A DNA stretch of 64,000 nt from an uncultured bacterium (GTDB taxonomy: Bacteria > Patescibacteriota > Patescibacteriia > Patescibacteriales > UBA12465): positions 409,159 through 473,158 of the forward strand of contig OW818634.1 of the NCBI GenBank assembly GCA_942492765.1. The letters run 5' to 3'. Positions 4,943 to 39,664 of the stretch are shown here, piece after piece. Position 1 is the first letter of the stretch. Every line of letters starts with the position of its first letter. Under the pieces are notes generated by a model. The model saw only the letters and a list, made by a program, of their open reading frames with translations, did no database searches and was not told where the DNA came from. Both the position numbers and the translations under genes were made by a program.

Positions 4943-4963
4943 ATTTATTTTAAATATTTATTT

Positions 4964-6862: not shown

Positions 6863-6868
6863 ATTAGT

Positions 6869-7549
6869 TTATTTCTCTACCCTGAGCTTGTCTAAATCGA
6901 CTAATTCCTGGTTCTGAGAGGTTTCCGGGTTATAGGTCTTATAATAAAGCTCAATCAGGCTCTGGGTATCTAAGCGGGCGACGGCGACGCCGAGCGATTC
7001 TAGGCCGCCGGTGACGCTGTCGATGCGGCGATCAAGCATCTCCTGATAATTCTTAAAGGTTTTTTCCTTAAGCTTGATGACAGTCGCCGGCTTAAGCGCT
7101 TCGCTCAATAGGCTCATGAAACCTTTATGCTTATCAGTCAGCGGGTCATAAGGAACAATCACGTAAAAACGCTTATTCATGATCTTGCCCAAGGAGGTCA
7201 GCTCTTTGATATATTCGATATAGTCGGCGGTCTGAACTTTCAATAATTTATTCATCTGCTCCTTCTCTTTATTCTTCAAGTATTCCAGATAATTATTGAT
7301 GTCTAATTCGCGGGACTGGATGACGATCTGGAGCGTGAAGGTCAGATTATTCAAGAAGCGGACATAAGAATCAATAACCGCATTCTGTTCGTCTTCGCTC
7401 TTGAGCGCGAAATTTATACTGGAAACGAGAAGCACGGCGCGCAAAGTGCCATCCTTCATCACGACGGTGTTATCCTTAATCTCAGCAATATTCAGATATT
7501 GCTGGGTAGAAGAGCTTATTTTATTCTTAGCCAATCCTTTTTCCGGCAT
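6869..7549 (-). CDS. Hypothetical T4SS-associated protein resembling the non-ATPase N-terminal domain of VirB4-type proteins
   Basis: 226-aa ORF packed tightly between the PrgI-like and VirB4-like genes. Contains YLNIAEIKDNTVVMKDGTLRAVLLVSSINFALKSEDEQ and no Walker motifs. Confidence 0.5.
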   Translation of the reverse strand: MPEKGLAKNKISSSTQQYLNIAEIKDNTVVMKDGTLRAVLLVSSINFALKSEDEQNAVIDSYVRFLNNLTFTLQIVIQSRELDINNYLEYLKNKEKEQMNKLLKVQTADYIEYIKELTSLGKIMNKRFYVIVPYDPLTDKHKGFMSLLSEALKPATVIKLKEKTFKNYQEMLDRRIDSVTGGLESLGVAVARLDTQSLIELYYKTYNPETSQNQELVDLDKLRVEK

Positions 7550-7567
7550 AATTTAAATTTATCCTTT

Positions 7568-7987
7568 TTATTCTCCTTTATAGCGTCCTTTGGTATCGAC
7601 GACGAGCGCCAGTTCGGCCAAGCGCGACTTCTTATACATTTTCGGACCGACGGCTGGCGTCTCCGGCTTGATCTCGATATTCGGTTCTCCGACTTCGGCG
7701 GCCATCATGCGATTATTCCAAACCCTTATTCCCGGACGGCGTAAAGTCTGAAAGGCATTGAGCATGAACAGATGAAAGGGGCGGCCGTTTATCTTGACGA
7801 AGGCGAATAGGGCGGCAAAGATGAGCGTCACGATGCCGACGGTCAGGAAGAGAGTAAAATCGAACAGCTTATAGCTGATGCCGATAATGACGGCGGCGCC
7901 AAGAATAATCATGAATTGGCGCACAGTCAGAGGGCCGATAATCTTATTCTCGACATCGATGAATTGAGGAACGGTGAACTGCTGCAT
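7568..7987 (-). CDS. PrgI-family (VirB3-like) small membrane protein
   Basis: 139 aa. N-terminus is QFTVPQFIDVENKIIGPLTVRQF, followed by two TM helices. Confidence 0.6.
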   Translation of the reverse strand: MQQFTVPQFIDVENKIIGPLTVRQFMIILGAAVIIGISYKLFDFTLFLTVGIVTLIFAALFAFVKINGRPFHLFMLNAFQTLRRPGIRVWNNRMMAAEVGEPNIEIKPETPAVGPKMYKKSRLAELALVVDTKGRYKGE

Positions 7988-7992
7988 ATATC

Positions 7993-9375
7993 TTAAAAAA
8001 CTAACTTGCTATTCAAGCTGACAATCGCCTCAATCTCTTCCATGTTCAGATATTCCTGGTTGGCGGTCTTGCGCGCTTCGGCTACCTGCTTCATGGGCTG
8101 GCCTTTAGCGATCGCTTCTTGGCCTAAGCGCAGATACAGGCGGCTGACCGGACTCTGGCGCCAAGCGCGGACGCCGGCGACCATCTTATCATAACCATCC
8201 TTCTCTAATAATTTTATCTTGGAAAAAACTTTAGAGGTTATCTCAGCTGGAGTCGCGCCTAAGCGGCGGAAATTTACCACATCCAAGAATTGCAATTCTT
8301 CAATCGGACCCATGACTTTGGGCATCGGCTTGATATCATGCATCTGCGGGCGGGCGGCTGAAGGAGCGGGTGCCTGTTTGCCAGCTAAAGTACGCGCGGC
8401 GGCCATAGAAATCGGAGGCGTCGGAACGGCTTTAACGGCGGCGGGAGTTGCAGCTGATTTAGGCGCGATAGCGGCGGCCGGAGCAACTTTGAGAGCAGAA
8501 GCGGGAATAATGATCTTCGGGGCGATTGGAGCAGCGGCGACGGCCGGGGCTTTGGGAGCTGCTACCGTAGCCGCAGCGGCTATCGGCTTCTCTTCAACTT
8601 TCGGCTTAATATCTAATTTAGGCTTAGGCAGGTCTAATTGTTCTTCCGGTTCAGGCAGTTCATGCTTCGTATCTAGAGCCTGAGGAATGATGGATTTAGT
8701 TTCTCCCTTAGCTAAAGCTTGTTTAAGATTATACTCTGAACTTATCGGAGCGGATGCTTTATCGGCGCTGCCGATAATCTTATCTAGGCGCGTCACTGGC
8801 GGCATGGCGACTGGGGCGGATTGAGTGGAAACAGCTGGAGTGATCAGGCCTTTAGAAATCCGAGTGTCGCAGATCTTCAAGACGCGATCAATCTCTTCCG
8901 GACTTAGATTAAGGCCTCCAATCTTAACGTCTTTAGATAAAGTATTACGCGTATCTATCTTGCTCCTGATGCCGCGCGCATAAGTAGAAACGATATTCTT
9001 AAAACGGCTGATAGCGACGGCGCTCGGCAAAACTAAACCCGCTTCCTTAATCACCACTTCAATATCCTTATCAAGATCTAGGGCGCGTATTTCCGAAACC
9101 AGTCCTAAATAGTCGGCCATGGACGCGAATATTTTCTCTTTCAATTCTTTAACGAGCTGAGCCGCCATTTCCGGAGTCAATAATAATTCTCCGGTCAGGT
9201 AAGCCGGCAAATCTGAGAATTTTAAACTTTTGACCATCAACTTCATGACGACGATGGCCAAGTCAACCTTATATTTAGCCTCTAGCTCGGAAATTTTGGC
9301 CATGGCTGACGGCGAAGAAACCTGATCGCGCAGGTTTTTAGGAAGATTATTGAATTGTTGTAAATAGTCGAACAT
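7993..9375 (-). CDS. Hypothetical protein with a long central Ala/Pro/Lys-rich linker, first gene of the T4SS-like cluster
   Basis: 460-aa ORF with a low-complexity AP-rich middle (PKAPAVAAAPIAPK...). Antisense ORFs in this region are GC/Ala-repeat shadows. Confidence 0.6.
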   Translation of the reverse strand: MFDYLQQFNNLPKNLRDQVSSPSAMAKISELEAKYKVDLAIVVMKLMVKSLKFSDLPAYLTGELLLTPEMAAQLVKELKEKIFASMADYLGLVSEIRALDLDKDIEVVIKEAGLVLPSAVAISRFKNIVSTYARGIRSKIDTRNTLSKDVKIGGLNLSPEEIDRVLKICDTRISKGLITPAVSTQSAPVAMPPVTRLDKIIGSADKASAPISSEYNLKQALAKGETKSIIPQALDTKHELPEPEEQLDLPKPKLDIKPKVEEKPIAAAATVAAPKAPAVAAAPIAPKIIIPASALKVAPAAAIAPKSAATPAAVKAVPTPPISMAAARTLAGKQAPAPSAARPQMHDIKPMPKVMGPIEELQFLDVVNFRRLGATPAEITSKVFSKIKLLEKDGYDKMVAGVRAWRQSPVSRLYLRLGQEAIAKGQPMKQVAEARKTANQEYLNMEEIEAIVSLNSKLVF

Positions 9376-21152: not shown

Positions 21153-23777
21153 TTAAGGCATCTTTTTTCCTATGCTGGTCGCCTGCGCGTATTTTTCTTC
21201 AAAGTTTTTTGAATCTTTTAATTGGCCGAGGCGCCATTCCAATTTCTCAAACAAAGTTAGCTGGTCTTTGCCTATCTTATTAGTATCAAATAATTTCTTC
21301 AAATCAGGGTTATCTTTGATTGCATCATAAACATATTTAGCGGCGCTCTCATTCATGGTTTCTATATTCTTATGGCCCGCTTCGTTATCAATACTCTTTA
21401 ATTTAATGACGCCGCCTGCGTCAAGATTAAATTTCCCTGTCTTATCATGATATCCATAAGACAGGCGATTATTATTTCTAATGAAGGCCTGAAGCTGCTG
21501 CTTGCCGGTTTCAATATCACGAATTTCATGATGTTCTTTGTCCGAAGTTTCTTTCCATTGTCCATCCACCATCTTATAAGCCGCGGTTGCGCCCCAATGA
21601 TTAGTATTCTTATTCAATTCCGCAATCTGGCTGCCTAAGCCGAAAGCTTCCTGCTGATTAAAGCCGGCGTAATTCTCAGAATTCTTGTCAGAGAGATCGC
21701 GCATCATCTTCTTCAAGCCGACATGATCAGTCCGGCCGCTGAAACGCTTCAAAAATTCATTATCATTAGCTTCTTTCGTCATCTTCAAAGCGATAGCCTT
21801 GACCATGGTCTTATCTTTCGCCTTGATAGCGTCATCCATGATGCGCAATAATTCAGAAACATCAGTAACATCCTTAATCTTAGATGCCTCGGAAGAAACG
21901 GCTTTCTGTTCGGCCGCACGGGCTTCAAAACTATATTCAGGAATATTGCTTTCGATCTTATGTTCCGCTCTTTTCTGAGCCATCTCGGCTTCTTTGGCCG
22001 CCACTTCCTTATCTGTCAGATCCTTCTTAGAGAAAGCCTTGCCATAATTCTGATTCATAAAGGCTTGCTGTGCCTGAATGTCCTTGCCTTTCGCCTGAGC
22101 TACTTTAATTTCAGCTTGACTCGTCTGCTTCTGCTTCTCCCACTCCGCTATCTTCTTCTCATCGACTAAACGAGGATCGCGGCTACGCTCGCTCTTGATA
22201 TTCTGATCAATATTCTTTATCTTATCATTTTCAGCCTTGATAGTATCAAATACGACCGTCTTCTCATTCTGCGCTTTTATTCTCATATCATCACGCTTCG
22301 AAGGATCAGCGCTCATGTATGCTAATTCGTCTTGACGCATCCTAGCCTCCTTTTCAGCCTGCACTTTCTCCTGTTCGCCTTCTCCTTGCAAGCGCGACAT
22401 CATCCGCCCGCCCTTAAGCCTCTTGCCGACGCCTTTCCAGGAAGTCATCTGCTCCCAAGCATCGGCAGAATTTCCGGTCATGGCTAAAATGCCATGAACT
22501 CGGCCGCCAGTTTCCATTGCTTCTCTAGCTGCTAATTGGCCGGTAGTATAGCGCTTCTCTTCGAGTTCTTTGCGTTTTTCTTGAACACCCTTCCAGGCTC
22601 TCTTAAGATTCAGATCGACGCCGGTTTTCTCATGGAGCTTGCTGACTCCATATTCCATCGCGGTTCCTGCTCCGGCCTTAAGGCCCTTAAGGGGCAAAAG
22701 CGCTGCTCCAGTAACTGCTCCGGTCGCGAAACCGGCTCCTTTTTGTATGGCCGCCATTCCCTTCCCAGCCATACTGCCAGCCGCTCCACCGATACTCTGA
22801 GAGACTTTCAATCCGCCCAAAAGCATGCCAATGGCAATAACGAACTGGATAAGGGACGCGGGCGTAGAGGCCTTAGTGGCGGCTACGGCAGCCGCTCCAG
22901 AACCATTGGTCACCGGTCCGGTATTCGAAATCTCCTCCGCCGCCGAAGTGTTAGCGGAGTCCATCTGCTTATAAGTTTGAAGAGAAGCGAATGAAAGCCA
23001 GATGAAAAAAGCTAAAACCGGACCGACAATAAGATTTTTCGTAAATTCGCTCCACCACTCTGAAGAATATTTTTGTCCACCCGGGAAAGCCGATAATAAA
23101 TAGGCGGCCGGCGATAAGACGACATAGATCCAGATCATAACTAGGCGCATCACAAGCATCATCATCATCGTCACGATGACGACGACAGCGACTAGAAGAT
23201 ATATGATGCCTAAAACATAGGCGCCGACGACTGTCCATAGGCTCATGGTACTGTCTTCCTTGGCCAGGGTCACGATATTACTCAGCCCTAAGATGTCGGT
23301 CAAATTCGCGCCGCCGACGTCTTTAAAGGCGTTGACAAAAGTCAGCATGACAACCTGCGCGGCATCAATCATCAGACCGCAGATAGTCTTAGAGAAATTA
23401 ATAAGCACCGCCATCAATATCAATTTAGGCAGCCATTTCTTATAACTATAATTCTCTAAATGCAGAATAGTCCCGAAGGCTATGATGAGCAGGATAACTA
23501 CGAAGAACATATTGCAGATATCGCGCACTATCACCCAGCCGAGCCTGACAGCATCGGAACCGATGAAATTCTGATATCCGGCGATAAGGATCAAGCCCTT
23601 GATCACTAAAACTAAAATAACTCCTAACGCCCAGATGAATACTCCGAGAATGCCGCTAACGACACTGACCGCCCAATCCGGAGCCGCAAAGACGTTATGA
23701 CCGAATAAAAAAATTCCGATTACGGCTATAAGCGGCAGAATGACTGATAAAGTTTTTTTACTATTAATTGATTTCAT
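21153..23777 (-). CDS. Large polytopic membrane protein with a Lys/Glu-rich coiled-coil C-terminal half. It may be a VirB6/TrbL-like channel component, but that function is weakly supported.
   Basis: 874 aa with a signal-like N-terminus, many TM segments over roughly the first 330 aa, a Gly/Ala-rich stretch and then a charged helical region. Confidence 0.7.
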   Translation of the reverse strand: MKSINSKKTLSVILPLIAVIGIFLFGHNVFAAPDWAVSVVSGILGVFIWALGVILVLVIKGLILIAGYQNFIGSDAVRLGWVIVRDICNMFFVVILLIIAFGTILHLENYSYKKWLPKLILMAVLINFSKTICGLMIDAAQVVMLTFVNAFKDVGGANLTDILGLSNIVTLAKEDSTMSLWTVVGAYVLGIIYLLVAVVVIVTMMMMLVMRLVMIWIYVVLSPAAYLLSAFPGGQKYSSEWWSEFTKNLIVGPVLAFFIWLSFASLQTYKQMDSANTSAAEEISNTGPVTNGSGAAAVAATKASTPASLIQFVIAIGMLLGGLKVSQSIGGAAGSMAGKGMAAIQKGAGFATGAVTGAALLPLKGLKAGAGTAMEYGVSKLHEKTGVDLNLKRAWKGVQEKRKELEEKRYTTGQLAAREAMETGGRVHGILAMTGNSADAWEQMTSWKGVGKRLKGGRMMSRLQGEGEQEKVQAEKEARMRQDELAYMSADPSKRDDMRIKAQNEKTVVFDTIKAENDKIKNIDQNIKSERSRDPRLVDEKKIAEWEKQKQTSQAEIKVAQAKGKDIQAQQAFMNQNYGKAFSKKDLTDKEVAAKEAEMAQKRAEHKIESNIPEYSFEARAAEQKAVSSEASKIKDVTDVSELLRIMDDAIKAKDKTMVKAIALKMTKEANDNEFLKRFSGRTDHVGLKKMMRDLSDKNSENYAGFNQQEAFGLGSQIAELNKNTNHWGATAAYKMVDGQWKETSDKEHHEIRDIETGKQQLQAFIRNNNRLSYGYHDKTGKFNLDAGGVIKLKSIDNEAGHKNIETMNESAAKYVYDAIKDNPDLKKLFDTNKIGKDQLTLFEKLEWRLGQLKDSKNFEEKYAQATSIGKKMP

Positions 23778-23778: not shown

Positions 23779-24402
23779 TTAATTGCTAATACCTGCGATT
23801 GCGCCCCAGATAGCTCCCAACGAAGCTTTAAGAGCTTCGAGCGGACTGGTAATAGCTCCGACTATCATGGCAATAACGGAACCCACGGCTATGATTACAA
23901 AGAGGCATCCCAAATCGCAACCGGCCAAGAGACAGCATTCATTCGAAGCCTTGACTGGCGGCTTTGCTCCCGCAGCCGCTCCAGTTGCTCCGGCGGCGCT
24001 GCCAGGAATCATGCTCGCCCATTCTTCTCCTAATTTACAGAACAATCTTTCCCCTAAAACATAACTTAAAAAAACATGAATATTTACCCAAATCAGAGTA
24101 AGCCCCCAGCTAGGAATCAGATTCAGCCATGATTGCTGTAATAGTCTCGAAGTTCCGAGACTCAATGGCGAAGCGCCGGCCTCTCCGGCAGCTTCTTCTA
24201 CGCCAATGGATTTAGCCGCCTCCTTCTTCTTTTCGGCCAGAACCGCTTCGCGTAATGACATGGCGCTCTGACTGCCAGCCCCGTCTTGGGCGCCAGCTCG
24301 CTGTGCCTCTCTTAAGCCGCCGGCTCTATCGGATGCCCCGGATAATTCATCAGTTTCGGCCGCTTCTTGTTTTTTCGCTAATAACTGTTCATCAAGATTC
24401 AT
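23779..24402 (-). CDS. Hypothetical membrane protein (Ala/Glu-rich N-terminus, TM C-terminus with a Cys cluster)
   Basis: 207-aa ORF whose stop lies 1 nt from the start of the 874-aa gene. Contains CCLLAGCDLGC inside a hydrophobic segment. Confidence 0.55.
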   Translation of the reverse strand: MNLDEQLLAKKQEAAETDELSGASDRAGGLREAQRAGAQDGAGSQSAMSLREAVLAEKKKEAAKSIGVEEAAGEAGASPLSLGTSRLLQQSWLNLIPSWGLTLIWVNIHVFLSYVLGERLFCKLGEEWASMIPGSAAGATGAAAGAKPPVKASNECCLLAGCDLGCLFVIIAVGSVIAMIVGAITSPLEALKASLGAIWGAIAGISN

Positions 24403-25218: not shown

Positions 25219-25256
25219 AAGAAAAAAGGCTTATCAATTTAAATAAGCCTTTTAAA
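25219..25256 (-). terminator. Rho-independent terminator of lipoprotein cassette B
   Basis: AAAGGCTTAT (25225-25234) pairs with ATAAGCCTTT (25243-25252). It is near-identical to the cassette A terminator. Confidence 0.65.
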
Positions 25257-25300
25257 AGTACGAGTCAGTTCTAATCATAAGAAGAATGTTTAGCGACATA

Positions 25301-25744: not shown

Positions 25745-25802
25745 GATTTTATGTTTTTAAGGTTCTTGTTGTCTTTTTTATCCTCTGTAATTAACTATAG
25801 AT

Positions 25803-25831
25803 AGTATATAACATTATCAAGGTTTTGTCAA
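25803..25831 (-). promoter_or_regulatory. Sigma70-type promoter TTGACA-N17-TATACT for lipoprotein B
   Basis: Minus strand reads TTGACA (25831-25826), a 17-nt spacer, then TATACT (25808-25803). Confidence 0.55.
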
Positions 25832-25858: not shown

Positions 25859-28800
25859 CTAATAATTCCTAGCATAAGCCCCCCAGTTATCAGTAACCTG
25901 TATCTTCAGAGTCTTCGGGCCCTTAGAAGAATAATAATGATAGAAAACATGGGGATTAGTGGCTGTCGGGTGATGATCTTCGCCGGTGATAGTCTGGACG
26001 CTGCCATCGCCCCAGTCAAGAATGATTTCCTTAAGCGGCTGCTGTTCCTTGTCGACCTGACTATTAAATTCTAGGCGATAAACGCCTTTATTAAGGATAT
26101 CAAAAGTATTGCCGGAAGCGGAAATCGTAGTCCTGGTCCCGCCGGCATAAAGCCTGATATTACTGATAGTCGGATAAATCCAGCAGAAAGAACTCGTTCC
26201 CTCTCCAATGCGCGTATCATTAGCGCATTTATTCAGAGTCGAAGTAAAATCGGAATAGAAGCGTGTATCGGGTCCATAGACATTATCATTAAAATTATAA
26301 CTTCTATAAGATGTCATGAACAAGGTCTTTAGGATATTCCTATAATCGGGAGTACTTTGTTCACTAACAATGACTGGGGATAACTGTTGATTCCAAAGCG
26401 GAATACAGGTGCCTGACCCATCACAAGAGTTAATGCCGATGGCGGTATCGCCGGGAACTAGGCTGGCGGCGGTCAAGCAATAGGCATCTTTATTTTCGCT
26501 GCAATAACCAATAGAAGTACAGCCGCTCGCATTCCCTATTTGATTACAACCATAAGGCCGGCCAGCGGAGATAGTTTCTTTATTACTATCTGAATAAGTA
26601 TTGCGCAGAGTAACCGGCGCGCTCAGAGAGCTTAGGTCATTAGGCAGGGCGGCGGCACCATAAGGAATAAAAGATCGATTCCGGCCATACCCGGAGATAG
26701 CTTTAGGCGCAGCGCTATACTTATTATTCGAGCTGTCAACGAAGAACCCGGGCGTGGTATCAGGATAAGCTGGATCGCCGTTGATTCTGGCGGCCCAAGA
26801 CTTATTCTCGCCATTCTCATTGACAACCTGGATGAACCTATTGCAAGTGAAGCGAAAAATCTTAGTCGGATCGTCTCCGGAGTTATCTAGTAGCTTTAAA
26901 TCATTTTCCGTCGTCGGCGGAGTATTATAGTCATAAACCCGGACAATCGGATCAGCTAAGACCTGATTATCTGCGGCAGTCCCGTGGCCGCTATACCGAT
27001 ACCAGCCGTCAGTTGAGACAAAGAGCATAGCACGATAGGCACTTCCGCTACTCACAGTAGAACCGTTGACCCAAGAATCGGCATTCGCCAATAGTCTGGT
27101 ATAGGTATAGCCCGTGGTCGCGGTTGACCAGTCCTCGAGATATCTATGCTGGCTCGGGCTATTAAAACTGGTGTCGTCATCTCTCAATACTTTAAGAATG
27201 AATTTCTTGCTGGCATTGTTCTTCGGAACGCACCACCAATCGCCGTTACAGTTCCAGTGGTCGCCTCTCCACCAAGAATATTCGTAATAGAATCTTTCGT
27301 AGCCCGAGGCGCAAGAGCCAGCGCTAGTCTGAAAGCCGTCGTTAGAATCTCCACTATCACAATCGCCGTTAGTATTATCATGTCCTAGATAATAAGCCTT
27401 CCGATTTTCTACTAAATCAAAATTACCGTTCAATTCCGTACAATAATTAAGAGGATAAGTGCCTTTATAGGCATAGGCAGACTGCTGAGAAATCCTAGTG
27501 GTCGAAATCTTATCGACCGGATACCAGATCAAGCAGACGCTCGGATTGAAAGAATCATGCTCTAAACAATAGCCCTCTAGGCCGTTCTTAATCACATTGC
27601 TATTCTTAGTTTCGCAAGTCAGGCTGTCTTCAGTCGGATAGAGACGGCATTCGCGCGGCGCGTATTGGTTATTGCCGATTTCTAAGACCGGCTCGATACT
27701 GAGATTATCAAAATAAACAGCGTTCTTATCCTGAGGATCGCTCGTATCCGAGCTCAGATAAATCTTGATCTTATTCTTCCCTTCTCCGTAGCCGATATCG
27801 AACTTGGCAATCTTCGTTTCCCAGCCGGTAGGCGCGGCCGCGTAAAATATCATTGGCGCGTTGGTCACCGGATCATTCATGACCGTGCCATTTACGTCAG
27901 TAATCATCACTTTCGTGCGCAAGGTCGAGCCCTTGGTATTAATCATGTAGCTCAAATAATAGGTATTGGTTTTATTTGCTTCAGGCGAGGCTAATTCAGC
28001 AAAGCCAGTCGGCCCATCGCCTAAAGTAGAGACTTGATATGGAGCGACGACTTTCAGATAACCCTTGCCTTGGGCCGGATAATCAGTCGGGGCATTCTCC
28101 GGTTCTTTCACTACGGCGTAAGCGTCGTTAGGGCAGGCCGCGGGACCGGAAAAATTAATATTACCATGGCAGCTCAGCGAGGGGCTATCCTCAAAATCAG
28201 CATAGAAACCGGAGCTGAACCCAACCTCCTTGATCTGGCTGAAATGATATTTATTGAGCAAAGAATAGCCGGTCGCGTTCTTATCGTTATTAGCATCGAA
28301 GCTGCGGACCGCCGTCGGCATAGTGATAAAATTGGCGCATTCATTCTTATCATCCAGGCGGTTGCATTCGGCGACAGCATAACAAGTCTTCTTCTTCGTG
28401 GCCGGATCCTCAATATAAGTCACGCAGTCTAGCCATTTAGAGCAGACGCGGTCTGGGCGGACTTTGATAAGCTGATTAGAGGTGCATGACCCCTGAACGC
28501 TAGGCGAACAGGCGGTCGGCGTAGCGCCGGATACTGTCTTATAAGCATCCCAGCCTTTTTCTAAGCTGACTAGACCGGAAGCTCCGGCAACATTGCGTTC
28601 ATTGAAGAGAACGCAGCCGTCGTCGAAATTCACGAGCCCATTGCAGCTCGTCTTATCAATATTAGCTTTCAGCTGATAATCGACAACCAGTTCCCTGACT
28701 TCTATGGTCTTGCCCGTCGCGCCGCCGCTGACCAAGGCCGTGGAATTATTGATAGAATTAAATATTATCGGCTGATTGGCATTACTGGAAATAGTGAAGC

Positions 28801-31800
28801 TGTTAGTAGTCGTCCCGAAATTATTATTAACCAGCAGCGGCCTAGCGGGAGTTTCAAACGACAGAGCGACATTACCGGAAGCGCCGGTGTCGTATTTAAC
28901 CGTGAAGCTATATAATTTATTCGGCTCAAGCCGGATAATCTGCTGCGTAGCGGTCGGCTGCTGGCCATTAAAATTTTCACCGTCATAACCCCAGCCTTCT
29001 TTAACTCCTTCTATCGTCTGATAGCCGGAATTAAAGACCAGATTGACTGAGAATTGGCTGACGGGATCGATATATTCCGTGCAGCCCGATTCGTTGGCGC
29101 TACAGAGACCGGCGGCCGTATCCGGAATCCAGACCTGGTTGCCAGCCCCGCCTAAGCCGATAGTCTTATCATATGAAGTAGAGCAAGGATAATCATTATT
29201 ATCAATAATACATTTGTTTGCGCCGCAATCGTTATCGCTCGTACAGATAGCGCTGCCTTTTTCGACTCCGGCAATTGAGCCGTCCTTACTGGCATCACAG
29301 CGCTTGACCGCTATCTTATACCACGACTTGCCAAATATCTTAGGATCAGCGCTGGCTCTATATGAGCAGGCATTCGCTCCCGGATTCTTAAAGTAACTCA
29401 CAGCTCCGTCATCGCTATTACTCCATTCCTCGCAACCGACGTTGGGTTTCTGGCATAGAGACTGGGCATAAGTATCCGGATTGTTCTGCCTATAGGCGTC
29501 TACCCAGGAAGTAATGATAGCTCCGCCTTGGCCTTGACCTAAGCGGCTGCAGCCTTTGCTAGCCGCAGTGCATAATTTATTCGGATCATAGACCGCATAG
29601 AGGGCGCTGTCGGCATTTACTTTGACGCAGTCGACCTCGGTCGGATCGCAGGCATTATTGTTATTGGTGTCATTCCAGATACCCGGACCATAATCGGAAT
29701 AATTCTTAGTGTCTACCATCTGCTCGCAGCCAACAGCCGATTCCGAGCAGAGCTTAGAAAATTGGCGCAGGTTATGCATTAAGCCGCCGCGATCGGCATA
29801 TTGAGCGCAACCGAGATTATAATCGGCTCCCTGATATTGATCGAAGATATCATAGTAGCAGACGTTAGGAATCTGGCTAGAACCTTTGACTAGATAATAG
29901 CGGTCAGTAATCTCAGAGAGGACGAAGTCGTCGAATAAGAAATTAGCGTTAGCGCTGATGATCAGGCGTTCATTCGGACCGACGGCATGGTCGAGATTCT
30001 CCAGGTTCGCTTGATACAGATTCCATTCATTGCCGCCCTTGACGACTAAAGTGCTAGAAGCGTTGAAATATGACTTAGCTCCGGTATCGCGGTTCAAGAA
30101 ATATATTTTCAGGTTTACATTAGTCACGGCGCGCGCTAAGAATTTCACGGCATAGGCGCTATTCTGATTGACGGAATTACCGACAGCGAGCTGAGCGGCG
30201 ACATTATCGCTCGCGAGCAGCCTTTCTATCAAGCGAGTCTTAGCTATCGGCGCGCCGGCATCATTGCCGACCGGCTGACAGCCGCTCGCGCTATCTAAAT
30301 ATTGCAAAGAGTGCCCATCCTTACTGTTAGCTACGGTAGAAATACTAAGGCCGTTGGTACAATTAGAAGTCCAATAAGCAGCTGCGCCACTTTCGAAATC
30401 ATAAGACGTCACGAGACGGACATTATTGCCGCTATTGCCATTGTATTCGCGGCAGCCGTTCTCGTTAGCGGAACAAGTCTGGCCTTCGCCTGGAATCGCC
30501 TGATAGACGCAGCCGTTATTATTAGTATCCCAAGCGCCGCCGTTCGGACAGATATTACAGGTACTGTCTCCCGCGTTCCAGTGCTTATCAGAACCGGTGC
30601 ATTGCGCGGCCGTCATGTTATTGACGATATTCTTTTCGCTCAGCCTATAGGCATGGCAATCTTCAGAACAGGTTATAGTCCGAGAAGCAAGATGATAAGA
30701 GACTTGACCGGCAGCATTATAAAATTCGCGACAATCCGCATTATAGCCGGCATTAGTGATCGGCAGATTATAGATAGCGGCGTTGCATAAAGCGCTGTCA
30801 TTCGCGGTCACTTCCGGCAAACCGCCTTGGCTCTTGAGAGAGTAGGACTTAAGCTGATAGCCGGCGTCAGTTCCCTCCCAAGAATAGAAGGTGGCGCAGG
30901 TAGCGGCTGAAGGCTTAACGCATTGTTTTAGGGAAGTATAATATTCTTTCTGTTCGCCGCCAGCGGCCAACGCATCTAGATTAGTAAACTCATTGCAGCC
31001 AGCTGCGGCCGCGCTACAAGCCATTGCCTTTTCCGGAATGAGATTCTCGGAAACGGCCGGATTGAAGCGGCTAGCTTTGGCGACATAAACATCATAGCCT
31101 AAACATTGATCAGAACAATAATCGCTGCTCACGACCTTGGCCGGAACCGCGAAATTATCAGCAAGCGAAGAGTATAATTCACAGCCGGCTTCTTCCTTAT
31201 TGCATTTGCGGGCGAAATTGGAACAGACAGTCGGAGCGCCGCTCTTCAATTCATAATTCTTAGTAGCGCTGACCGCGTCGACATAGCATGATTTTTCTAA
31301 GTAAGCCGGCAATAATTTTTCATACACAGTGAAGCGTCCGTAATTGCTATAACCGGTATCCCAGCTGCTGATTTCGAACTTTAGATTCTTAAAATAGAAG
31401 GTAGCTTGACCATTGGCGCTATAACCGCTGACGAAGAAATCGGCGTTATTATAAGCGCTATCGGCCAGACGCGTAATGCTGACATGCTGCCAGACGTTCT
31501 TAGTGGTTATGGTTTTGGCAAAACCCTCAGAAACCGCTCCTAGACTGAGGCTAGCGCTATCGCCGCTAGCCAAATAGAGGTCAGCGCTGAGCGTATAGGA
31601 TTGTCCAGAAATAGTCTGAAAATTAGCCGGCAAAAGAGAGGCCGGAGGATTAGAATAGACGCCGCCGCCGGTTGCGCTAGTTTCCAGGCGCATAGCCTTG
31701 CCGCTAGAATCTCCCGGGGCGATAGATGAATCGACAATGGTCGCGCGAGCATTATTCAGAGGCCAATCATTGAGAGCCGGCTGAGTCGCCGTATTACCTA

Positions 31801-34012
31801 TTTCATCGTTGCCAAAATTAGAATTCATGACTAAATTACTACCCCAGGTCGGCTTTAGGCGCATCAGCTCGGTGCAGCCGTCGTCGGACTTCTCGCAAAC
31901 CTTGGCATTCTTATTAAGATAAATGCTCTGTCCGCCATCCCAAGAGACCGTATCAGTGGAACTATTATAAGCGCCGTTGAATGAATATTGGCGGCAGCCG
32001 GAATTTTCCGAAGTACAGCTGTCATAATCCAAGGTATTCTCCAGATAAGCGACCGAGGCGCCGCTTTCAGTATTAATAAAATCTTGGCAGGTATTATTTA
32101 TCGGCTGACAAGAGTCAGCGCCGAATACCCAGGTCCGTCTTTCCTCGTCGCAATAGCCGTAAGCATCGCAGCTGCCATCGCTCTTTTCCTTGATACAGGT
32201 CTGGCTATCAGCACAATAAGAATCGGCGCGGGCCACACTTAATTCGCTCGGAGTGGCCGGAGCGTCTCCGATAGCCTCAGTTCCCGGCATGACAGTCTTG
32301 CTCAATATCTGAGCGCTAAAACCCTCTTTGCTACAGGAATTCATCGGCGCTTTTAAGACCCAATTTGGATCAACCAAGCCTTGGCACCAGCCTTGGTCAT
32401 TGACATTGAAGTCTTTGCTGAAACTAGCATATTGATCATTGGGATCAAAGCAGGACATAAAGTCGCTCAGAGTGGCCTTCTTCTGGTTAGCATCGTTAGC
32501 ATAGGCCCTAGAAACTGCCTCTTCCCAGCCGACCGGCAAAATACGATATTTACGAAGTATAGAAATATTGCGCAGGCCATAAGACCCGGCGCGGCTATCT
32601 CTCGTTAACTGCCAGTCGCCATGCAGATAACCTTCTTTAACCGCTTCCGCAACAGTTTTCTTCTCGGTTATCCCTTGCATGAACTGATCGTCAATAACGC
32701 AGTCAGTCGGACCAGGATTCTTAGAATCAATGCAGATAGATAATTCGGATAAGATATCATAATCAGCTCGGACGCCGAAATTAGTCTGCAAGAGTTTGGT
32801 AGTGATTTCTTTCAGGGCGGTAGCGCCGCCATTAGCGTTCGGGTCGCTCTCATAATTACTAGAACCCGTGCTGGACTTATTACCCTTTTCACTCTTCTCT
32901 CCCAAAGTCTGAAGTAGATTATTAAAAGCTGAAAAATATAATTGATTTAAAAAGACATTGGCAGCATCGACTAAAATATCACCAGTCGTCTTTCCTAAAG
33001 CCTGCTGCCTGGCAGTCCTAGCTGATTCAGCGGCTGCCTGAGCTTCTCCGGGAACTCCCTTCAAAGTGCCGGCGATAGTGCGAACGTCAGTCCAGCCCTT
33101 ATTGGCAATGAAGCTGCTGCCGGCAGTCAGGTTCTTATTATAAACCTGGTTCGACAGATCCGTCTGTGCGAGCACGAAAATACCGACATCGTTAGTGCGC
33201 GGGTCAAAAATATTCACGAATTCATCCAAATAATTAGCGTCTCTGAGCGAGGCGAGCTTCTTCTCGACGCTATCGCCCCAGTCCTTAATCATTCTTGAAG
33301 CCGTACAATTAGGCGCGGCCGGACGAGTCTGCTCTACTAAACCGAGGCCAATCTTAATCTTGGCCTCTAAAGACGACGGGCTGCAGACATTGAAGGATGG
33401 GGTCACTTGATCAGCGGTTGTCTGGGTCTGAGCCGCGCATTTAGTGGCCGCTCGATCACAATCAGCCGTGCAAGTTGTTCTATTTTCAGCATAATTATTG
33501 TCAGTGCCGCCTTCGTTAGTCAAGAAACTCACGCAGAACTCACGGCATTTCTTAAGCTGATTAGCGCAAGTCTCATCAACGGTGGTATTTAAATTATTAA
33601 CGAAACTTTCGATAAATTGGCCAGCCGCTTCATCGCTAATCTGCTCCAGATAAGCGCCAAGGCTCTTGGTGATGAAAAGCGGTTTCTGTCCCTTTCCGCC
33701 GGAACCGATATAATTGGCTGTGTCATAAGCAATCTTGTTCAGGGCTGAACTCAGGACCCTCTGAAATGCCAATGATCCAGCTTTCTGTATCAATTTAGTC
33801 GTCCTCTTCCAAAAAGAATCCTTTACAGCCGCTGTTGCCTGCGGCACAGACGCCTGTTCTATAGTAGTGACTGGGCCGCCAGTAACGTAAAATTGCGCCG
33901 AAACATCTTTTATAGTAAAGACCGCCAAAACAGAAAAAACCAGCAAGAAAAGGACCAATTTCTTACCGGTCTTAAATTCGGTCTCCTGGTTAAAATTTAG
34001 GAAAGACTTCAT
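25859..34012 (-). CDS. Giant (2717 aa) secreted cysteine-rich surface protein with jelly-roll CBM-like modules and a C-terminal PKD-like domain; putative adhesin
   Basis: Uninterrupted 8.1-kb ORF with an N-terminal signal/anchor (LVLFLLVFSVLAVFTIKDVSAQ) and very many Cys residues. Several segments fit the N.xF..W...F.NL..E pattern. The C-terminus has LDWGDGS...HVFYHYY...LKIQVTDNWG. Confidence 0.85.
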   Translation of the reverse strand: MKSFLNFNQETEFKTGKKLVLFLLVFSVLAVFTIKDVSAQFYVTGGPVTTIEQASVPQATAAVKDSFWKRTTKLIQKAGSLAFQRVLSSALNKIAYDTANYIGSGGKGQKPLFITKSLGAYLEQISDEAAGQFIESFVNNLNTTVDETCANQLKKCREFCVSFLTNEGGTDNNYAENRTTCTADCDRAATKCAAQTQTTADQVTPSFNVCSPSSLEAKIKIGLGLVEQTRPAAPNCTASRMIKDWGDSVEKKLASLRDANYLDEFVNIFDPRTNDVGIFVLAQTDLSNQVYNKNLTAGSSFIANKGWTDVRTIAGTLKGVPGEAQAAAESARTARQQALGKTTGDILVDAANVFLNQLYFSAFNNLLQTLGEKSEKGNKSSTGSSNYESDPNANGGATALKEITTKLLQTNFGVRADYDILSELSICIDSKNPGPTDCVIDDQFMQGITEKKTVAEAVKEGYLHGDWQLTRDSRAGSYGLRNISILRKYRILPVGWEEAVSRAYANDANQKKATLSDFMSCFDPNDQYASFSKDFNVNDQGWCQGLVDPNWVLKAPMNSCSKEGFSAQILSKTVMPGTEAIGDAPATPSELSVARADSYCADSQTCIKEKSDGSCDAYGYCDEERRTWVFGADSCQPINNTCQDFINTESGASVAYLENTLDYDSCTSENSGCRQYSFNGAYNSSTDTVSWDGGQSIYLNKNAKVCEKSDDGCTELMRLKPTWGSNLVMNSNFGNDEIGNTATQPALNDWPLNNARATIVDSSIAPGDSSGKAMRLETSATGGGVYSNPPASLLPANFQTISGQSYTLSADLYLASGDSASLSLGAVSEGFAKTITTKNVWQHVSITRLADSAYNNADFFVSGYSANGQATFYFKNLKFEISSWDTGYSNYGRFTVYEKLLPAYLEKSCYVDAVSATKNYELKSGAPTVCSNFARKCNKEEAGCELYSSLADNFAVPAKVVSSDYCSDQCLGYDVYVAKASRFNPAVSENLIPEKAMACSAAAAGCNEFTNLDALAAGGEQKEYYTSLKQCVKPSAATCATFYSWEGTDAGYQLKSYSLKSQGGLPEVTANDSALCNAAIYNLPITNAGYNADCREFYNAAGQVSYHLASRTITCSEDCHAYRLSEKNIVNNMTAAQCTGSDKHWNAGDSTCNICPNGGAWDTNNNGCVYQAIPGEGQTCSANENGCREYNGNSGNNVRLVTSYDFESGAAAYWTSNCTNGLSISTVANSKDGHSLQYLDSASGCQPVGNDAGAPIAKTRLIERLLASDNVAAQLAVGNSVNQNSAYAVKFLARAVTNVNLKIYFLNRDTGAKSYFNASSTLVVKGGNEWNLYQANLENLDHAVGPNERLIISANANFLFDDFVLSEITDRYYLVKGSSQIPNVCYYDIFDQYQGADYNLGCAQYADRGGLMHNLRQFSKLCSESAVGCEQMVDTKNYSDYGPGIWNDTNNNNACDPTEVDCVKVNADSALYAVYDPNKLCTAASKGCSRLGQGQGGAIITSWVDAYRQNNPDTYAQSLCQKPNVGCEEWSNSDDGAVSYFKNPGANACSYRASADPKIFGKSWYKIAVKRCDASKDGSIAGVEKGSAICTSDNDCGANKCIIDNNDYPCSTSYDKTIGLGGAGNQVWIPDTAAGLCSANESGCTEYIDPVSQFSVNLVFNSGYQTIEGVKEGWGYDGENFNGQQPTATQQIIRLEPNKLYSFTVKYDTGASGNVALSFETPARPLLVNNNFGTTTNSFTISSNANQPIIFNSINNSTALVSGGATGKTIEVRELVVDYQLKANIDKTSCNGLVNFDDGCVLFNERNVAGASGLVSLEKGWDAYKTVSGATPTACSPSVQGSCTSNQLIKVRPDRVCSKWLDCVTYIEDPATKKKTCYAVAECNRLDDKNECANFITMPTAVRSFDANNDKNATGYSLLNKYHFSQIKEVGFSSGFYADFEDSPSLSCHGNINFSGPAACPNDAYAVVKEPENAPTDYPAQGKGYLKVVAPYQVSTLGDGPTGFAELASPEANKTNTYYLSYMINTKGSTLRTKVMITDVNGTVMNDPVTNAPMIFYAAAPTGWETKIAKFDIGYGEGKNKIKIYLSSDTSDPQDKNAVYFDNLSIEPVLEIGNNQYAPRECRLYPTEDSLTCETKNSNVIKNGLEGYCLEHDSFNPSVCLIWYPVDKISTTRISQQSAYAYKGTYPLNYCTELNGNFDLVENRKAYYLGHDNTNGDCDSGDSNDGFQTSAGSCASGYERFYYEYSWWRGDHWNCNGDWWCVPKNNASKKFILKVLRDDDTSFNSPSQHRYLEDWSTATTGYTYTRLLANADSWVNGSTVSSGSAYRAMLFVSTDGWYRYSGHGTAADNQVLADPIVRVYDYNTPPTTENDLKLLDNSGDDPTKIFRFTCNRFIQVVNENGENKSWAARINGDPAYPDTTPGFFVDSSNNKYSAAPKAISGYGRNRSFIPYGAAALPNDLSSLSAPVTLRNTYSDSNKETISAGRPYGCNQIGNASGCTSIGYCSENKDAYCLTAASLVPGDTAIGINSCDGSGTCIPLWNQQLSPVIVSEQSTPDYRNILKTLFMTSYRSYNFNDNVYGPDTRFYSDFTSTLNKCANDTRIGEGTSSFCWIYPTISNIRLYAGGTRTTISASGNTFDILNKGVYRLEFNSQVDKEQQPLKEIILDWGDGSVQTITGEDHHPTATNPHVFYHYYSSKGPKTLKIQVTDNWGAYARNY

Positions 34013-34038: not shown

Positions 34039-34728
34039 TTATTGATTCAAGTTCGCGCTAGTACTCTGGGCATCAAGCGTCTCCTGATAACTCTTCATGA
34101 GATCTTCATCGCTGATCTGATCGAGGTCTGCCTTGGAGGCGCCGCCAGAAATCAGGAATTGGCGCAGGGTTGCGGCATCTCCTTGACCGTTTAAGACATT
34201 CTGAAGAATATTTTCATCAACACTGGTCGTATCAAGATCAGCGGAAGAACCGGTAGTATCAGAGACATCGGACGCCGTATTAGCGTCCCCAGAAATGTTC
34301 GAAGCGCTGGTCGTGGCGATCGCGCTCGTATCGACAGAAGCGTGACAATCCTTGCCTTTCGGACAAACCGGATCAGTCCCGTTATCTATTTCTTTCTTAT
34401 CGGACAAGCCGTCGCTATCGGTATCTTCAAGATACGGCGAAGTCTTATACGTATAGATTTCGGCATAATCAGATAAGCCATCCTTATCAGTATCTGCACT
34501 CTTCAAGAGATTATTATAATCTTCTTCGGAAGTATCGGTCGCCATCGAGGTCTGATAATCGAACGGACCCTTGATATGCGCTCCCATCTGCCAGATCCAG
34601 AAGACAATAATAAAAACCGCGAAAGCGGCTAAAATAATGACCGCATTTCTTTGCGGCTTAGGCAATCCTTTTGAGCTTGGATAAATCTCGTTCCCTCCCC
34701 AATTTTTTTGTATCGGCATAATAATCAA
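34039..34728 (-). CDS. Membrane-anchored protein with thrombospondin type-3-like Ca-binding repeats
   Basis: One TM helix, then DTDKDGLSDYAE and DTDSDGLSDKKEIDNGTDP (DxDxDG repeats), then a Ser/Asp/Thr-rich tail. Confidence 0.65.
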   Translation of the reverse strand: MIIMPIQKNWGGNEIYPSSKGLPKPQRNAVIILAAFAVFIIVFWIWQMGAHIKGPFDYQTSMATDTSEEDYNNLLKSADTDKDGLSDYAEIYTYKTSPYLEDTDSDGLSDKKEIDNGTDPVCPKGKDCHASVDTSAIATTSASNISGDANTASDVSDTTGSSADLDTTSVDENILQNVLNGQGDAATLRQFLISGGASKADLDQISDEDLMKSYQETLDAQSTSANLNQ

Positions 34729-34761
34729 ACTAAACCAAAAAATGGTTCTTGATTATTTTCA

Positions 34762-35616
34762 TTATACCATAAACGGTTTCAAAGCCGCAAATAATTTTTG
34801 CCAATCTTCAAGCAATAAATCTTCAGCGCGCGCGGCATTTTTTATTCCTGCCTTAGCCAAGGTATCTTCTAAGTCTTTCGGCTCTAATCTAAGGCCGGCC
34901 GCCAGGTTATTCTTAAGCATTTTTCGCTTAGAACTAAAACCGATCTTCACTATCCGAAAAAAATCCTTGTCAGTCTTCGCGTCGAAAGCCTGAGATTTCA
35001 GATCTATCCTGATAATGGCGCTATCGACCTTCGGTTCCGGCCAGAAATTACCAGCTTTGACTTCCCTGCTTATCTTCGGATTAGCGTAATATTGGACAGA
35101 AAGCGCCAAGACGCTCATATCTGGAGGGGTGGCCGCAATGCGCTCGGCCACTTCTTTCTGAAGCATTAAAACAAAAGATTCTGGCTTATGTTCAGAGGTC
35201 AAGAAACGGCGCAAGAAGATCGAAGTGATATTATAAGGCAGATTAGCGACAATCTTATATTTAAAAGGCAGGCTCAATTTCTTAAAATAAGCTTCCAGAT
35301 TAAAATCCAAGATGTTCTCATTGACTATAGCGACGTTTTCGATCCCCTGCGAATCAATGCCGGTCTGCAGATACTCAGCTAATTTATTATCCAGCTCGAC
35401 GGCGACTACTTGCTTAACTTTAGCCGCTAGCTTGGCGGTCAAGAATCCTAAGCCCGGGCCTATCTCGAGAACTATATCATCTGATTGCAAATCAGCCGCT
35501 TTGATGATGTCGTCATAGATCTTTTCATTGATCAAAAAATTCTGACCCTTGGAATGGGACGGCTTAATCTCGAAGATATGGCAGATTTCTCTGGTTTTCG
35601 CTAATAGGTCGGACAT
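34762..35616 (-). CDS. rsmA: 16S rRNA (adenine1518/1519-N6)-dimethyltransferase
   Basis: Contains KGQNFL, the SAM-binding EIGPGLGFLT and the NLPYNI motif. Confidence 0.9.
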   Translation of the reverse strand: MSDLLAKTREICHIFEIKPSHSKGQNFLINEKIYDDIIKAADLQSDDIVLEIGPGLGFLTAKLAAKVKQVVAVELDNKLAEYLQTGIDSQGIENVAIVNENILDFNLEAYFKKLSLPFKYKIVANLPYNITSIFLRRFLTSEHKPESFVLMLQKEVAERIAATPPDMSVLALSVQYYANPKISREVKAGNFWPEPKVDSAIIRIDLKSQAFDAKTDKDFFRIVKIGFSSKRKMLKNNLAAGLRLEPKDLEDTLAKAGIKNAARAEDLLLEDWQKLFAALKPFMV

Positions 35617-38897: not shown

Positions 38898-38914
38898 TTT
38901 TTTATAATAATCAT

Positions 38915-39664
38915 ATGGGTTTAGAAGAGAGAGTGAAATACGCAGCCATGAAGGCGCGCCACAAAAAAATCCTGCTCCCTTGGTACAAGAGATGGTGGGG
39001 GGTGGTAGTTTTAGCCTTAGCCGGATTACTGCTCATAGTCCTGACGATTTCCAGCCTTTACGTCGTCAATAAAGCGCAATCCATCATCGCTGAACAGAAC
39101 CAGGGAGTGACCCAGCAGGATTATGAGAAATATATCCAGGCTATCAAGGGCGATGGCAGTAATTTTTATATCGGTACGACGACGCCGCAGGCGACTATCG
39201 TAGAATTCGGCGATTTTGCCTGCCCCTACTCGAAAGAATCCTATCTGGTTGTCAAGCAGATCTTGGCTGATTATCCCGACAAGATCAAGATAGTCTGGAG
39301 AGATTATCTGCGCAACGAAGATTCCATTGATCTCGCGGTCGCGGCTCGCTGCGCCGGCGCTCAAGGAAAATTTTGGGAAATGCATGATAAGCTTTTCGAG
39401 GACCAGGATAACCTGACTACCGCCGATGAGGCCCGCCTCAATCGTTTGGTGGCGCTAGCCGTCAGCCTCGGGATGAATGATACGGAATTCGCCACCTGCC
39501 TAGCTAACCGCGACAACCTGACTAAGATCCAGAAAGATTACGAGGAAGGCAATGAGCTCGCTATCATCGGCACGCCGACCTGGTTCGTCAATAATTACCC
39601 GATTTCCGGATCTCTGACTCTTGATAAATTCAAAGAGCTCTTGAGCGGAATCATTAAAAAATAA
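38915..39664 (+). CDS. Membrane-anchored DsbA-like thioredoxin-fold protein with a CPYS (CxxS) active site
   Basis: ATG at 38915 avoids overlap with xth. There is a TM helix, then FGDFACPYSKE, AARCAGAQGKFWEMHD and GTPTWFVN, which are typical of DsbA-like Thioredoxin_4 proteins. Confidence 0.75.
   Translation: MGLEERVKYAAMKARHKKILLPWYKRWWGVVVLALAGLLLIVLTISSLYVVNKAQSIIAEQNQGVTQQDYEKYIQAIKGDGSNFYIGTTTPQATIVEFGDFACPYSKESYLVVKQILADYPDKIKIVWRDYLRNEDSIDLAVAARCAGAQGKFWEMHDKLFEDQDNLTTADEARLNRLVALAVSLGMNDTEFATCLANRDNLTKIQKDYEEGNELAIIGTPTWFVNNYPISGSLTLDKFKELLSGIIKK

Follow-up and report, generated by a model that had tools for sequence, protein, structure and literature searches.

The giant gene and its family

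The 64,000-nucleotide window analyzed here (contig OW818634.1 of assembly GCA_942492765.1, positions 409,159 to 473,158 of the forward strand) comes from an uncultured member of the Patescibacteriota, and the element under study is a giant gene on its minus strand. The gene encodes a secreted-type, strongly constrained protein with conserved cysteines, is paired with a TSP3-repeat partner gene behind a conserved promoter, and heads a type IV secretion system (T4SS) locus. As the initial annotation had proposed, it is a single 8.1-kb open reading frame (ORF), which runs uninterrupted from 25859 to 34012 and codes for 2,717 residues plus a stop codon. No frameshift or internal stop was found, and domain searches placed the product in no characterized adhesin family. 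Neither tandem repeats at the DNA level nor an unusual base composition was detected in the gene, and a second copy was seen neither in the window nor in the complete 977-kb genome CP066698. Measured against the 94%-identical relative at locus L085, dN/dS is 0.044 over the full length and at most 0.143 in every domain. The peak of 0.143 falls at residues 2480–2640, the fastest-evolving stretch, which lies in a compact C-terminal head, and no positive selection was found between the two genes.

Searches in a space of 5.8 billion proteins recovered full-length relatives in at least 120 clusters, nearly all of them 2,600–2,950 residues long (one truncated entry has 2,142) and most of them 42–94% identical to the giant protein across all or most of their own length. 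All of these clusters come from metagenome-assembled genomes (MAGs) of Patescibacteria or Candidatus Falkowbacteria, and every one is labeled "hypothetical." When one genome per GTDB species was scanned by pattern, 461 of them proved to contain relatives. A comparison with related genomes, already envisaged in the initial annotation, also revealed a T4SS neighborhood that the annotation had missed. An exhaustive hidden Markov model (HMM) search with the N-terminal 690 residues returned 1,402 representatives at 50% identity; for 1,085, the E-value is 1e-30 or lower. Among the matches listed, most representatives have 2,400–3,000 residues and the shorter ones resemble fragments, and all align through their N-terminal part. 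When a distant member served as the query instead, Falkowbacteria, a lineage of ultra-small Patescibacteria, was once more the sole lineage named. As far as the sources that name a lineage show, the family appears to be limited to Falkowbacteria or generic Patescibacteria; its length is almost constant (~2,400–3,000 residues), and the gene is present in essentially every sampled genome of the lineage. With more than 1,000 clusters at 50% identity, this is a large family that carries no annotation in any source, and no description of it was found in the literature on Falkowbacteria and cysteine-rich or giant proteins. Many public MAG records that contain the locus (L005, L007, L012, and others) are titled "uncultured Gammaproteobacteria bacterium" (TPA assemblies) and one "Bacillota bacterium"; these titles appear to reflect mislabeled taxonomy.

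Conserved cysteines and domain architecture

The initial annotation described a very high cysteine content. With 92 cysteines (3.39%), the giant protein is indeed well above the average of the other 37 genes in the window (1.08%), but this content is moderate in absolute terms, and it is the conservation of the residues that is remarkable. Across a 120-sequence alignment, the mean conservation of the 92 cysteines is 0.97, compared with 0.49 for all residues; 83 are conserved at ≥0.90, 54 are fully invariant, and 66–76 remain aligned in relatives at only 34–38% identity. The spacing C-x6-C is found 14 times, where random placement would give 2.5, and it typically takes the form C-x5-G-C-x-E-[YFW]. 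A mirrored motif, CX6CX3C...CX3CX6C, lies at residues 149–192 (33437–33568) on two predicted helices, and cysteine conservation in the N-terminal region that includes it is 0.91–0.95. These patterns suggest ~45 conserved structural disulfides in an extracytoplasmic protein. A gene for a membrane-anchored DsbA-type thiol-disulfide oxidoreductase (38912..39664, plus strand; PF13462 and PF01323) is located nearby, divergent from xth, and is kept in 63 loci; in L087 it is found at the far end of the T4SS cluster.

The features of the protein, all encoded on the minus strand, are as follows from the N to the C terminus.

33896..34012, minus: signal peptide (aa 1-39), from the sequence; predicted cleavage VSA↓Q, family consensus A-x-A-Q
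32813..33895, minus: N-terminal region (aa 40-400), predicted as mostly long helices at low confidence (pLDDT mostly <50); no Pfam or PDB match
32348..32710, minus: compact alpha/beta domain (aa ~435-555), pLDDT 82-90 in the AlphaFold2 model; column identity 0.64-0.70
31847..32245, minus: first cysteine-hairpin linker (aa 590-722), five C-x5-6-C motifs with invariant cysteines
31313..31849, minus: jelly-roll segment 1 (aa 722-900), CBM_4_9-like; PF02018 above the gathering score in orthologues P0005 and P0008
29888..30415, minus: jelly-roll segment 2 (aa 1200-1375); PF02018 stretch at 1325-1391 of orthologue P0119, probable positional correspondence from the alignment
28658..29059, minus: putative beta segment 3 (aa 1652-1785), from the pattern seen in the initial annotation only; lower conservation (0.36-0.56)
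27668..28315, minus: jelly-roll segment 4 (aa 1900-2115), CBM4-like; PF22637 CBM_4_9_1 in P0119
26093..27679, minus: compact beta-rich C-terminal "head" (aa 2112-2640), from the AlphaFold2 model; fastest-evolving part of the protein
25862..26095, minus: C-terminal PKD-like beta-sandwich (aa ~2640-2717), from Foldseek; pLDDT about 90

A hydrophobic core near the N terminus is followed by V-S-A↓Q at residues 37–40. The family consensus at this site is A-x-A-Q, so cleavage of a Sec signal peptide is more likely than the signal anchor of the initial annotation. The C terminus (...VTDNWGAYARNY) has neither an LPXTG motif nor a hydrophobic tail or transmembrane (TM) segment.

No named family fits the giant protein, in agreement with the initial annotation, whose author could not name its domain composition. 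Searches with the window protein gave no Pfam-A family at E ≤ 1 and no PADLOC model at E ≤ 0.01. NCBIfam gave nothing significant (a lone trace of PamR at E 0.34), Pfam searches with 28 N-terminal tiles gave nothing consistent, and PDB sequence-profile searches with an N-terminal tile and with the full-length profile gave only matches at E 0.06–0.7. Comparison with the T4SS families (VirB2/5/6/8/9/10 and PrgA-L) revealed no similarity; only insignificant traces of SseC (E 0.045–0.08) and the same PamR trace were seen. The AlphaFold2 model of a tile spanning residues 36–722 has a mean pLDDT of 50.7 and is confident only at residues ~435–555, the alpha/beta domain, for which Foldseek returned no PDB fold match and for which no sequence relative was found. 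At the level of sequence, the N-terminal ~700 residues are new.

Beyond this region, cysteine-hairpin linkers similar to the first recur at residues 900–1200, 1375–1652, and 1785–1900, with weak profile similarity among them. When 18 internal segments were compared by hhalign, only the short cysteine-hairpin motif recurred, and no resemblance was detectable between the jelly-roll segments. Four such segments, with a pattern like that of carbohydrate-binding modules (CBMs), had been proposed in the initial annotation; segments 1, 2, and 4 gain indirect support from CBM_4_9 and PF22637 matches in orthologues, whereas segment 3 (residues ~1652–1785) finds none. The PF02018 matches to segment 1 lie at residues 726–864 of P0005 and 714–850 of P0008, the same position as in the window protein. 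At segment 4, positions 1970–2081 of the full-length profile have a weak CBM4 match to 1gui_A (laminarinase 16A; E 0.064). The PF02018 scores of P0005, P0008, and P0119 (26.8–29.4 bits) exceed the cutoff of 25.9, and about half of the orthologues bear a precomputed PF02018 match. The closest known counterparts of these candidate modules are those of CBM family 4/9 (PF02018 and PF22637; CBM4-2 of Thermotoga maritima Lam16A, PDB 1GUI), which are beta-sandwiches of ~130–150 residues. Unlike typical CBM4/9 modules, however, those of the giant protein are attached to no catalytic domain, and the similarity is marginal.

The AlphaFold2 model of residues 2112–2717 forms one compact beta-rich unit (pLDDT 76.7, pTM 0.75). 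The head contains an indel-rich variable insert at residues ~2200–2350 (26963–27415), where occupancy is 0.49–0.64 and identity 0.12–0.19. In Foldseek searches with this model, the only matches among solved structures are PKD domains, namely 6aem_A (probability 1.00, TM 0.69) and 4l9d_A (probability 0.99, TM 0.60), with weak E-values of about 1e-2 and aligned spans of ~103–104 columns. The tool reports no aligned query range; because this span equals the size of the ~100-residue confident terminal beta domain, the match probably belongs at the C terminus. The PKD-like end of the initial annotation is thus upheld by the fold of the model and by a WGDG-type motif, LDWGDGS, but not by the PKD HMMs PF00801 and PF18911, neither of which matches the window protein at E ≤ 1. 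In size and fold, this end resembles the PKD domains of secreted Vibrio proteases (Epp PKD1, 6AEM; PrtV PKD1, 4L9D), which it matches at TM 0.60–0.69; unlike those domains, it lacks a PKD HMM match and occurs as one copy packed against a larger novel head. For the rest of the head, Foldseek found no match in the PDB and none among viral models. The idea of a phage receptor-binding protein was tried on the same C-terminal model, and the best viral match (rmsd ~30, probability 0.41) was unconvincing.

Putative promoter, partner gene, and the T4SS locus

The genes directly upstream of the giant gene, and the promoter that we assign to it, are listed below.

34039..34728, minus: TSP3 partner gene, 229 aa; PF18884 E 1.3e-8, TM segment at aa 30-48, two TSP3 Ca-binding repeats, acidic Ser/Thr-rich tail
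34761..34790, minus: putative promoter for the TSP3 and giant genes; -35 TTGCGG at 34790-34785, 18-nt spacer, extended -10 TGgTATAAT at 34769-34761
34762-35616, co-directional: rsmA, upstream of the giant gene
35625-38069, co-directional: leuS, upstream of the giant gene
38062-38850, co-directional: xth, upstream of the giant gene

The initial annotation described the giant gene as lying co-directionally, with short gaps, behind xth-leuS-rsmA and a Ca-binding-repeat gene, and this arrangement is borne out. Its further proposal, that the gene belongs to a housekeeping operon dependent on the xth promoter, does not hold, as a conserved putative promoter at the rsmA stop precedes the pair formed by the TSP3 gene and the giant gene. 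Its -10 hexamer contains the rsmA stop codon TAA (34764–34762), so that the coding end of rsmA and the promoter share the same bases. Among 73 orthologous loci, spanning ~35–94% identity of the giant protein, the extended -10 TG is kept in all 73, each TATAAT position in 72–73 (including the non-coding T after the rsmA stop), and the -35 TTGC in 71–73. Because that non-coding base is constrained, the signal appears to act at the DNA level, and its conservation points to a sigma70-type extended -10 promoter that would serve the TSP3 and giant genes. With a promoter of their own, these two genes would not need that of xth (38897–38869), which may add read-through to the giant gene. The TSP3 stop codon lies 26 nt before the giant gene start, and in 77 of 83 loci the TSP3 gene is the immediate upstream neighbor of the giant gene. 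Additional TSP3-repeat proteins occur near the locus in distant relatives (L084:4616-5200, L086:6480-7448, and L087:6440-7408), among them one fused to a YkuD L,D-transpeptidase domain and one 322-aa protein on the opposite strand, which hints that TSP3 Ca-binding proteins may be a recurrent envelope theme around it.

Synteny was assessed by tblastn of the window gene products against 80-plus related loci. On the 3' side, 56 loci have at least 4 kb of downstream sequence; in 51 of these, p207 and a polytopic membrane protein of ~870 aa come after the giant gene, the latter within 3 kb in 42 cases. Downstream sequence reaches ~10 kb in 51 loci, of which 23 continue with the full core (p460, PrgI, TraC-like, VirB4). 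The T4SS features of the window are the following.

23779..24402, minus: p207, small membrane protein, located after the giant gene in most loci
21153..23777, minus: p874, VirB6/TrbL-like; signal peptide, ~7 TM segments, long charged C-terminal domain
9426-20174, minus: metabolic block with pfkB, ahcY, metK, a cytidylyltransferase-like gene, and PEP-utilizer/PPDK-type genes
4325..9375, minus: remainder of the T4SS core; the metabolic block separates it from p321 by ~11 kb
7993-9375, minus: p460, T4SS core
7568-7987, minus: PrgI/VirB3-like, PF12666 E 6.6e-9
6869-7549, minus: p226, TraC-like/TrsD-like, T4SS core
4964-6862, minus: VirB4, PF19044 and AAA_10
4325-4942, minus: p205, bitopic, T4SS core
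41725-42702 and 43570-44946, plus: two T4SS-pilin-like (VirB2-type) genes, PF18895; kept in 57 loci

The family of p874 matches PF04610 (TrbL/VirB6) in 2 of 42 members, at a best E-value of 2e-4, and its orthologue in L086 has a weak match to PF19590 (TrbL_3). The T4SS core is contiguous with the giant gene in L085, in L086 and L087, and in ~20 other loci. At L086 and L087, where the giant proteins are 34–36% identical to that of the window, the order is rsmA, TSP3, giant gene, an ~170-aa gene, an ~800-aa VirB6-like gene, two more genes, PrgI, TraC-like, VirB4, and an ~215-aa gene. The upstream flank differs in both, with other genes in place of leuS/xth in L087 and extra genes between leuS and rsmA in L086. 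The two pilin-like proteins (5.85% and 5.24% cysteine) carry long extracellular extensions rich in cysteine. Their genes are interleaved with those for pyruvate:ferredoxin oxidoreductase subunits (39685–44946), an arrangement kept in 57 related loci. General scans of the window genes, with no search aimed at relaxases, brought none to notice.

Other features of the region touch the T4SS locus less directly. The products of p321 (20161–21126, minus) and p460 are conserved and apparently cytoplasmic and match no family; p460 has a long Ala/Pro-rich linker. Because relatives at 94%, 61%, and 49% identity lack the metabolic block at this position, it is inserted or rearranged in some lineages only. 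Three consecutive ORFs in this block encode products of 503, 528, and 631 residues (13140–16251 and 11200–13095, minus): the first two share a closely similar C-terminal segment, and the third has a PEP-utilizer mobile domain. Together with a separate PPDK_N gene at 9426–10364, they have the look of a pyruvate phosphate dikinase-like system that has been split or multiplied. The minus-strand interval from the giant gene to p207 (24550–25831) carries two small paralogous lipoprotein genes (25301–25744 and 24618–25046), each with a near-consensus promoter (25831–25803 and 25132–25104) and a near-identical terminator with a 12-bp stem (25253–25224 and 24579–24550). A homologue was found only in the closest relatives (L004, L005, L053, L058, and L085), and the pair looks like a recent duplicated insertion.

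Possible roles of the giant protein

In Gram-positive conjugative operons such as that of pCF10, surface adhesin genes precede the channel genes; PrgA, PrgB, and PrgC of Enterococcus pCF10 are surface adhesins at the head of an MPF_FATA T4SS operon. The giant gene resembles theirs in that its product is of the Sec-exported surface type, has a presumed role in cell–cell contact, and is encoded 5' of the VirB6-like, PrgI (VirB3), VirB4, and VirB8-like genes of a monoderm T4SS. The PrgB-type position at the 5' end of a VirB6/VirB3/VirB4 operon is found here too, although inserted genes interrupt the locus in the window. Unlike the PrgB-type adhesins, however, the giant protein lacks an LPXTG sortase signal, is about twice as large, and is cysteine-rich, with ~45 probable disulfides. 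Its gene is also chromosomal rather than plasmid-borne, single-copy, and kept across the whole lineage. No PrgB-type adhesin domain (the polymer adhesin of the GbpC/antigen I/II type or the Ig-like stalk) was matched in Pfam or NCBIfam at E ≤ 1, nor by sequence in the PDB.

The window T4SS is of the same type as that of Southlakia epibionticum, with VirB4, a TrsD/TraC-like protein, PrgI, an extended VirB6-like protein, and VirB2-like pilins. In Southlakia, the T4SS is essential for epibiotic growth (PMC10633639). The Patescibacteria T4SS is described as MPF_FATA-like in a survey that states, "No adhesins, such as PrgB, were detected" (PMC12102498, Quinonero-Coronel et al. 2025). The same study reports recG and radA in the ABY1-class T4SS locus, and the window agrees with that neighborhood, with recG and radA at its left end (143–1948 and 2942–4291).

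Because gene order with the VirB6-like, PrgI, and VirB4 genes persists at 34–36% identity despite changed flanks, we favor a role for the giant protein as a T4SS component. Our leading reading, which we hold at slightly less than even confidence, is that it serves the Patescibacteria T4SS as a surface tower or adhesin, exported by Sec and folded by DsbA. We judge in the same tentative way, as a claim that could well be true but falls a little short of probable, that it is a conserved extracellular component of a monoderm-type T4SS locus, and on either wording it qualifies well as a candidate for the host-contact part that is missing from the system. A more specific proposal, which we consider possible but rather doubtful, is that the giant protein and its TM-anchored Ca-binding partner constitute an obligatory T4SS module in Falkowbacteria, in which a disulfide-stapled docking tower of ~290 kDa recognizes host glycans and positions the VirB2-like pilus and channel.

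Under the T4SS reading, the giant gene would be co-transcribed with the upstream TSP3-repeat gene from the promoter buried in the end of rsmA, and its product would be exported by the Sec pathway with its signal peptide cut at A-x-A↓Q. Oxidative folding, probably by the neighboring DsbA, would then yield a rigid multi-domain molecule of ~290 kDa with ~45 disulfides. This molecule may begin with a helical base that holds a cysteine-stapled helical hairpin, followed by the novel alpha/beta domain; four beta-sandwich modules, three of them CBM4/9-like, would follow, separated by cysteine-hairpin linkers, and the chain would end in the compact head that closes in the PKD-like domain. The variable head is presumably the membrane-distal end. 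Retention at the surface would most likely be achieved via the TSP3 anchor, the VirB6-like membrane protein encoded downstream, or both. Glycan binding by the CBM-like modules, suggested by their family likeness, would attach the tower to the host surface and hold the channel and VirB2-like pilins at a fixed distance from it. In this capacity, the giant protein would be the functional counterpart of the surface adhesins that head Gram-positive conjugative T4SS operons.

Several observations weigh against this interpretation. Gene order is the sole link between the giant protein and the T4SS, and synteny in the region is high in general, with xth-leuS-rsmA also conserved in most loci. At five loci (L057, L071, L072, L077, and L084; 35–38% identity), neither a VirB6-like/p874 gene nor VirB4 lies within 10 kb downstream; these belong to the most divergent clade sampled, and they retain the TSP3 gene and the promoter. 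In the window, the two lipoprotein genes, with their promoters and terminators, part the giant gene from p207. The CBM assignments are weak, the window protein itself has no CBM or jelly-roll match in Pfam even at E ≤ 1, and confidence in the N-terminal structure model is low. It is also unusual for an adhesin that determines host range to be under very strong purifying selection, to have a fixed length, and to occur as a single copy. The initial annotation had proposed a giant adhesin-like host-attachment factor; attachment is still the best guess for its role, but with its fixed length, lack of repeats, and dN/dS of 0.044, the protein departs from the usual adhesin pattern of fast evolution and repeat expansion. 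Other very large surface proteins linked to attachment are the products of the giant genes of Omnitrophota and the RTX/BIg giant adhesins of Gram-negative bacteria. Of the latter, LapA, SiiE, and MpIBP have many tandem Ig-like repeats and variable length and are exported by type I secretion systems via a C-terminal signal, whereas the giant protein lacks tandem repeats, hardly varies in length, carries its Sec signal at the N terminus, and appears to be built on disulfides.

An S-layer-like envelope scaffold, in which the giant protein is tethered by its TSP3 partner to form a regular outer layer and the T4SS adjacency is incidental or reflects shared envelope biogenesis, is the main alternative, unlikely but to be taken seriously. 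In the archaeal Sulfolobales, SlaA and SlaB are a large beta-rich outer protein and a small membrane-anchored partner encoded beside it. The giant gene likewise adjoins the gene for a small membrane-anchored partner, although there is no homology and the partner is a TSP3 Ca-binding protein with an N-terminal anchor. A lattice protein would account for the universality of the family (essentially all genomes sampled from the clade have it once, at a near-constant length), for purifying selection along the full length of the gene, and for a near-consensus, invariant promoter suggestive of constitutive high expression at least as well as the T4SS reading. The obligatory pairing with a membrane-anchored TSP3 protein, which persists in the five loci that lack adjacent T4SS genes, points in the same direction. 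S-layers are, moreover, reported to be prevalent in Patescibacteria (bioRxiv 10.1101/2024.05.28.596244). However, Pfam and NCBIfam detect no SLH or other known S-layer anchoring or lattice domain in the giant protein, and its CBM-like and PKD-like modules and variable, presumably distal head fit ligand binding better than lattice contacts. A scaffold would also leave unexplained why gene order with the T4SS is so deeply conserved, even in relatives at 34–36% identity that have diverged in their other flanks.

One variant of the T4SS reading, improbable in our view, makes the giant protein a structural extension of the channel and not an adhesin. Here it would be a wall-spanning stalk or conduit that takes the place of the absent VirB7/9/10-type outer complex or of a VirB5-like pilus tip or base. 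The same locus evidence applies, the long helical N-terminal region is predicted to lie beside the membrane end, and extreme conservation and fixed length would suit a machine part. The Patescibacteria T4SS also has VirB2-like pilins, unlike other monoderm systems (PMC12102498; PMC12857230). Nevertheless, the giant protein resembles neither VirB5, VirB9, and VirB10 nor any other T4SS family, and the T4SS cluster of Southlakia (SEML1_0006-0019; Wang et al. 2023), whose largest genes encode 998–1,113 residues, works without a gene of ~2,700 residues.

CBM_4_9-type modules are typical of glycoside hydrolases, and a secreted polysaccharide-binding scaffold that scavenges nutrients, unrelated to secretion, can be imagined on this basis. 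We consider it very improbable given that no catalytic domain was detected in the 2,717 residues of the window protein or in the scanned orthologues and that the gene is stably paired with those for a membrane anchor and a T4SS. An assembly artefact or decaying pseudogene, to which we attach practically no probability, is excluded because dN/dS against the 94%-identical relative is so low, and the uninterrupted ORF, hundreds of independent full-length orthologues drawn from various assemblies and sources, and lack of tandem repeats on which an assembly could go wrong agree with this.

Overall, on the sequence comparisons made here, the giant family fits no PrgB-type, RTX/BIg, S-layer-domain, or T4SS component family; it has marginal CBM4/9 modules, a PKD-like module, and two domains without a known relative. 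A surface protein of a T4SS locus that joins these two domains to a near-fixed length of ~2,700 residues and ~45 conserved probable disulfides is an unusual set. A large share of bacterial diversity belongs to the Patescibacteria (the candidate phyla radiation), whose cultivated members live attached to host cells. Their unusual T4SS is essential for this attached lifestyle in the one genetically tractable species, and the phylum-wide survey of these systems found no adhesin. The giant protein offers a concrete, testable candidate for the host-contact element. If it is instead a lattice protein of the envelope, it would be a molecularly identified envelope-layer protein for the lineage. If the docking-tower reading is true, it would supply the "missing adhesin" of the Patescibacteria T4SS and set host range.

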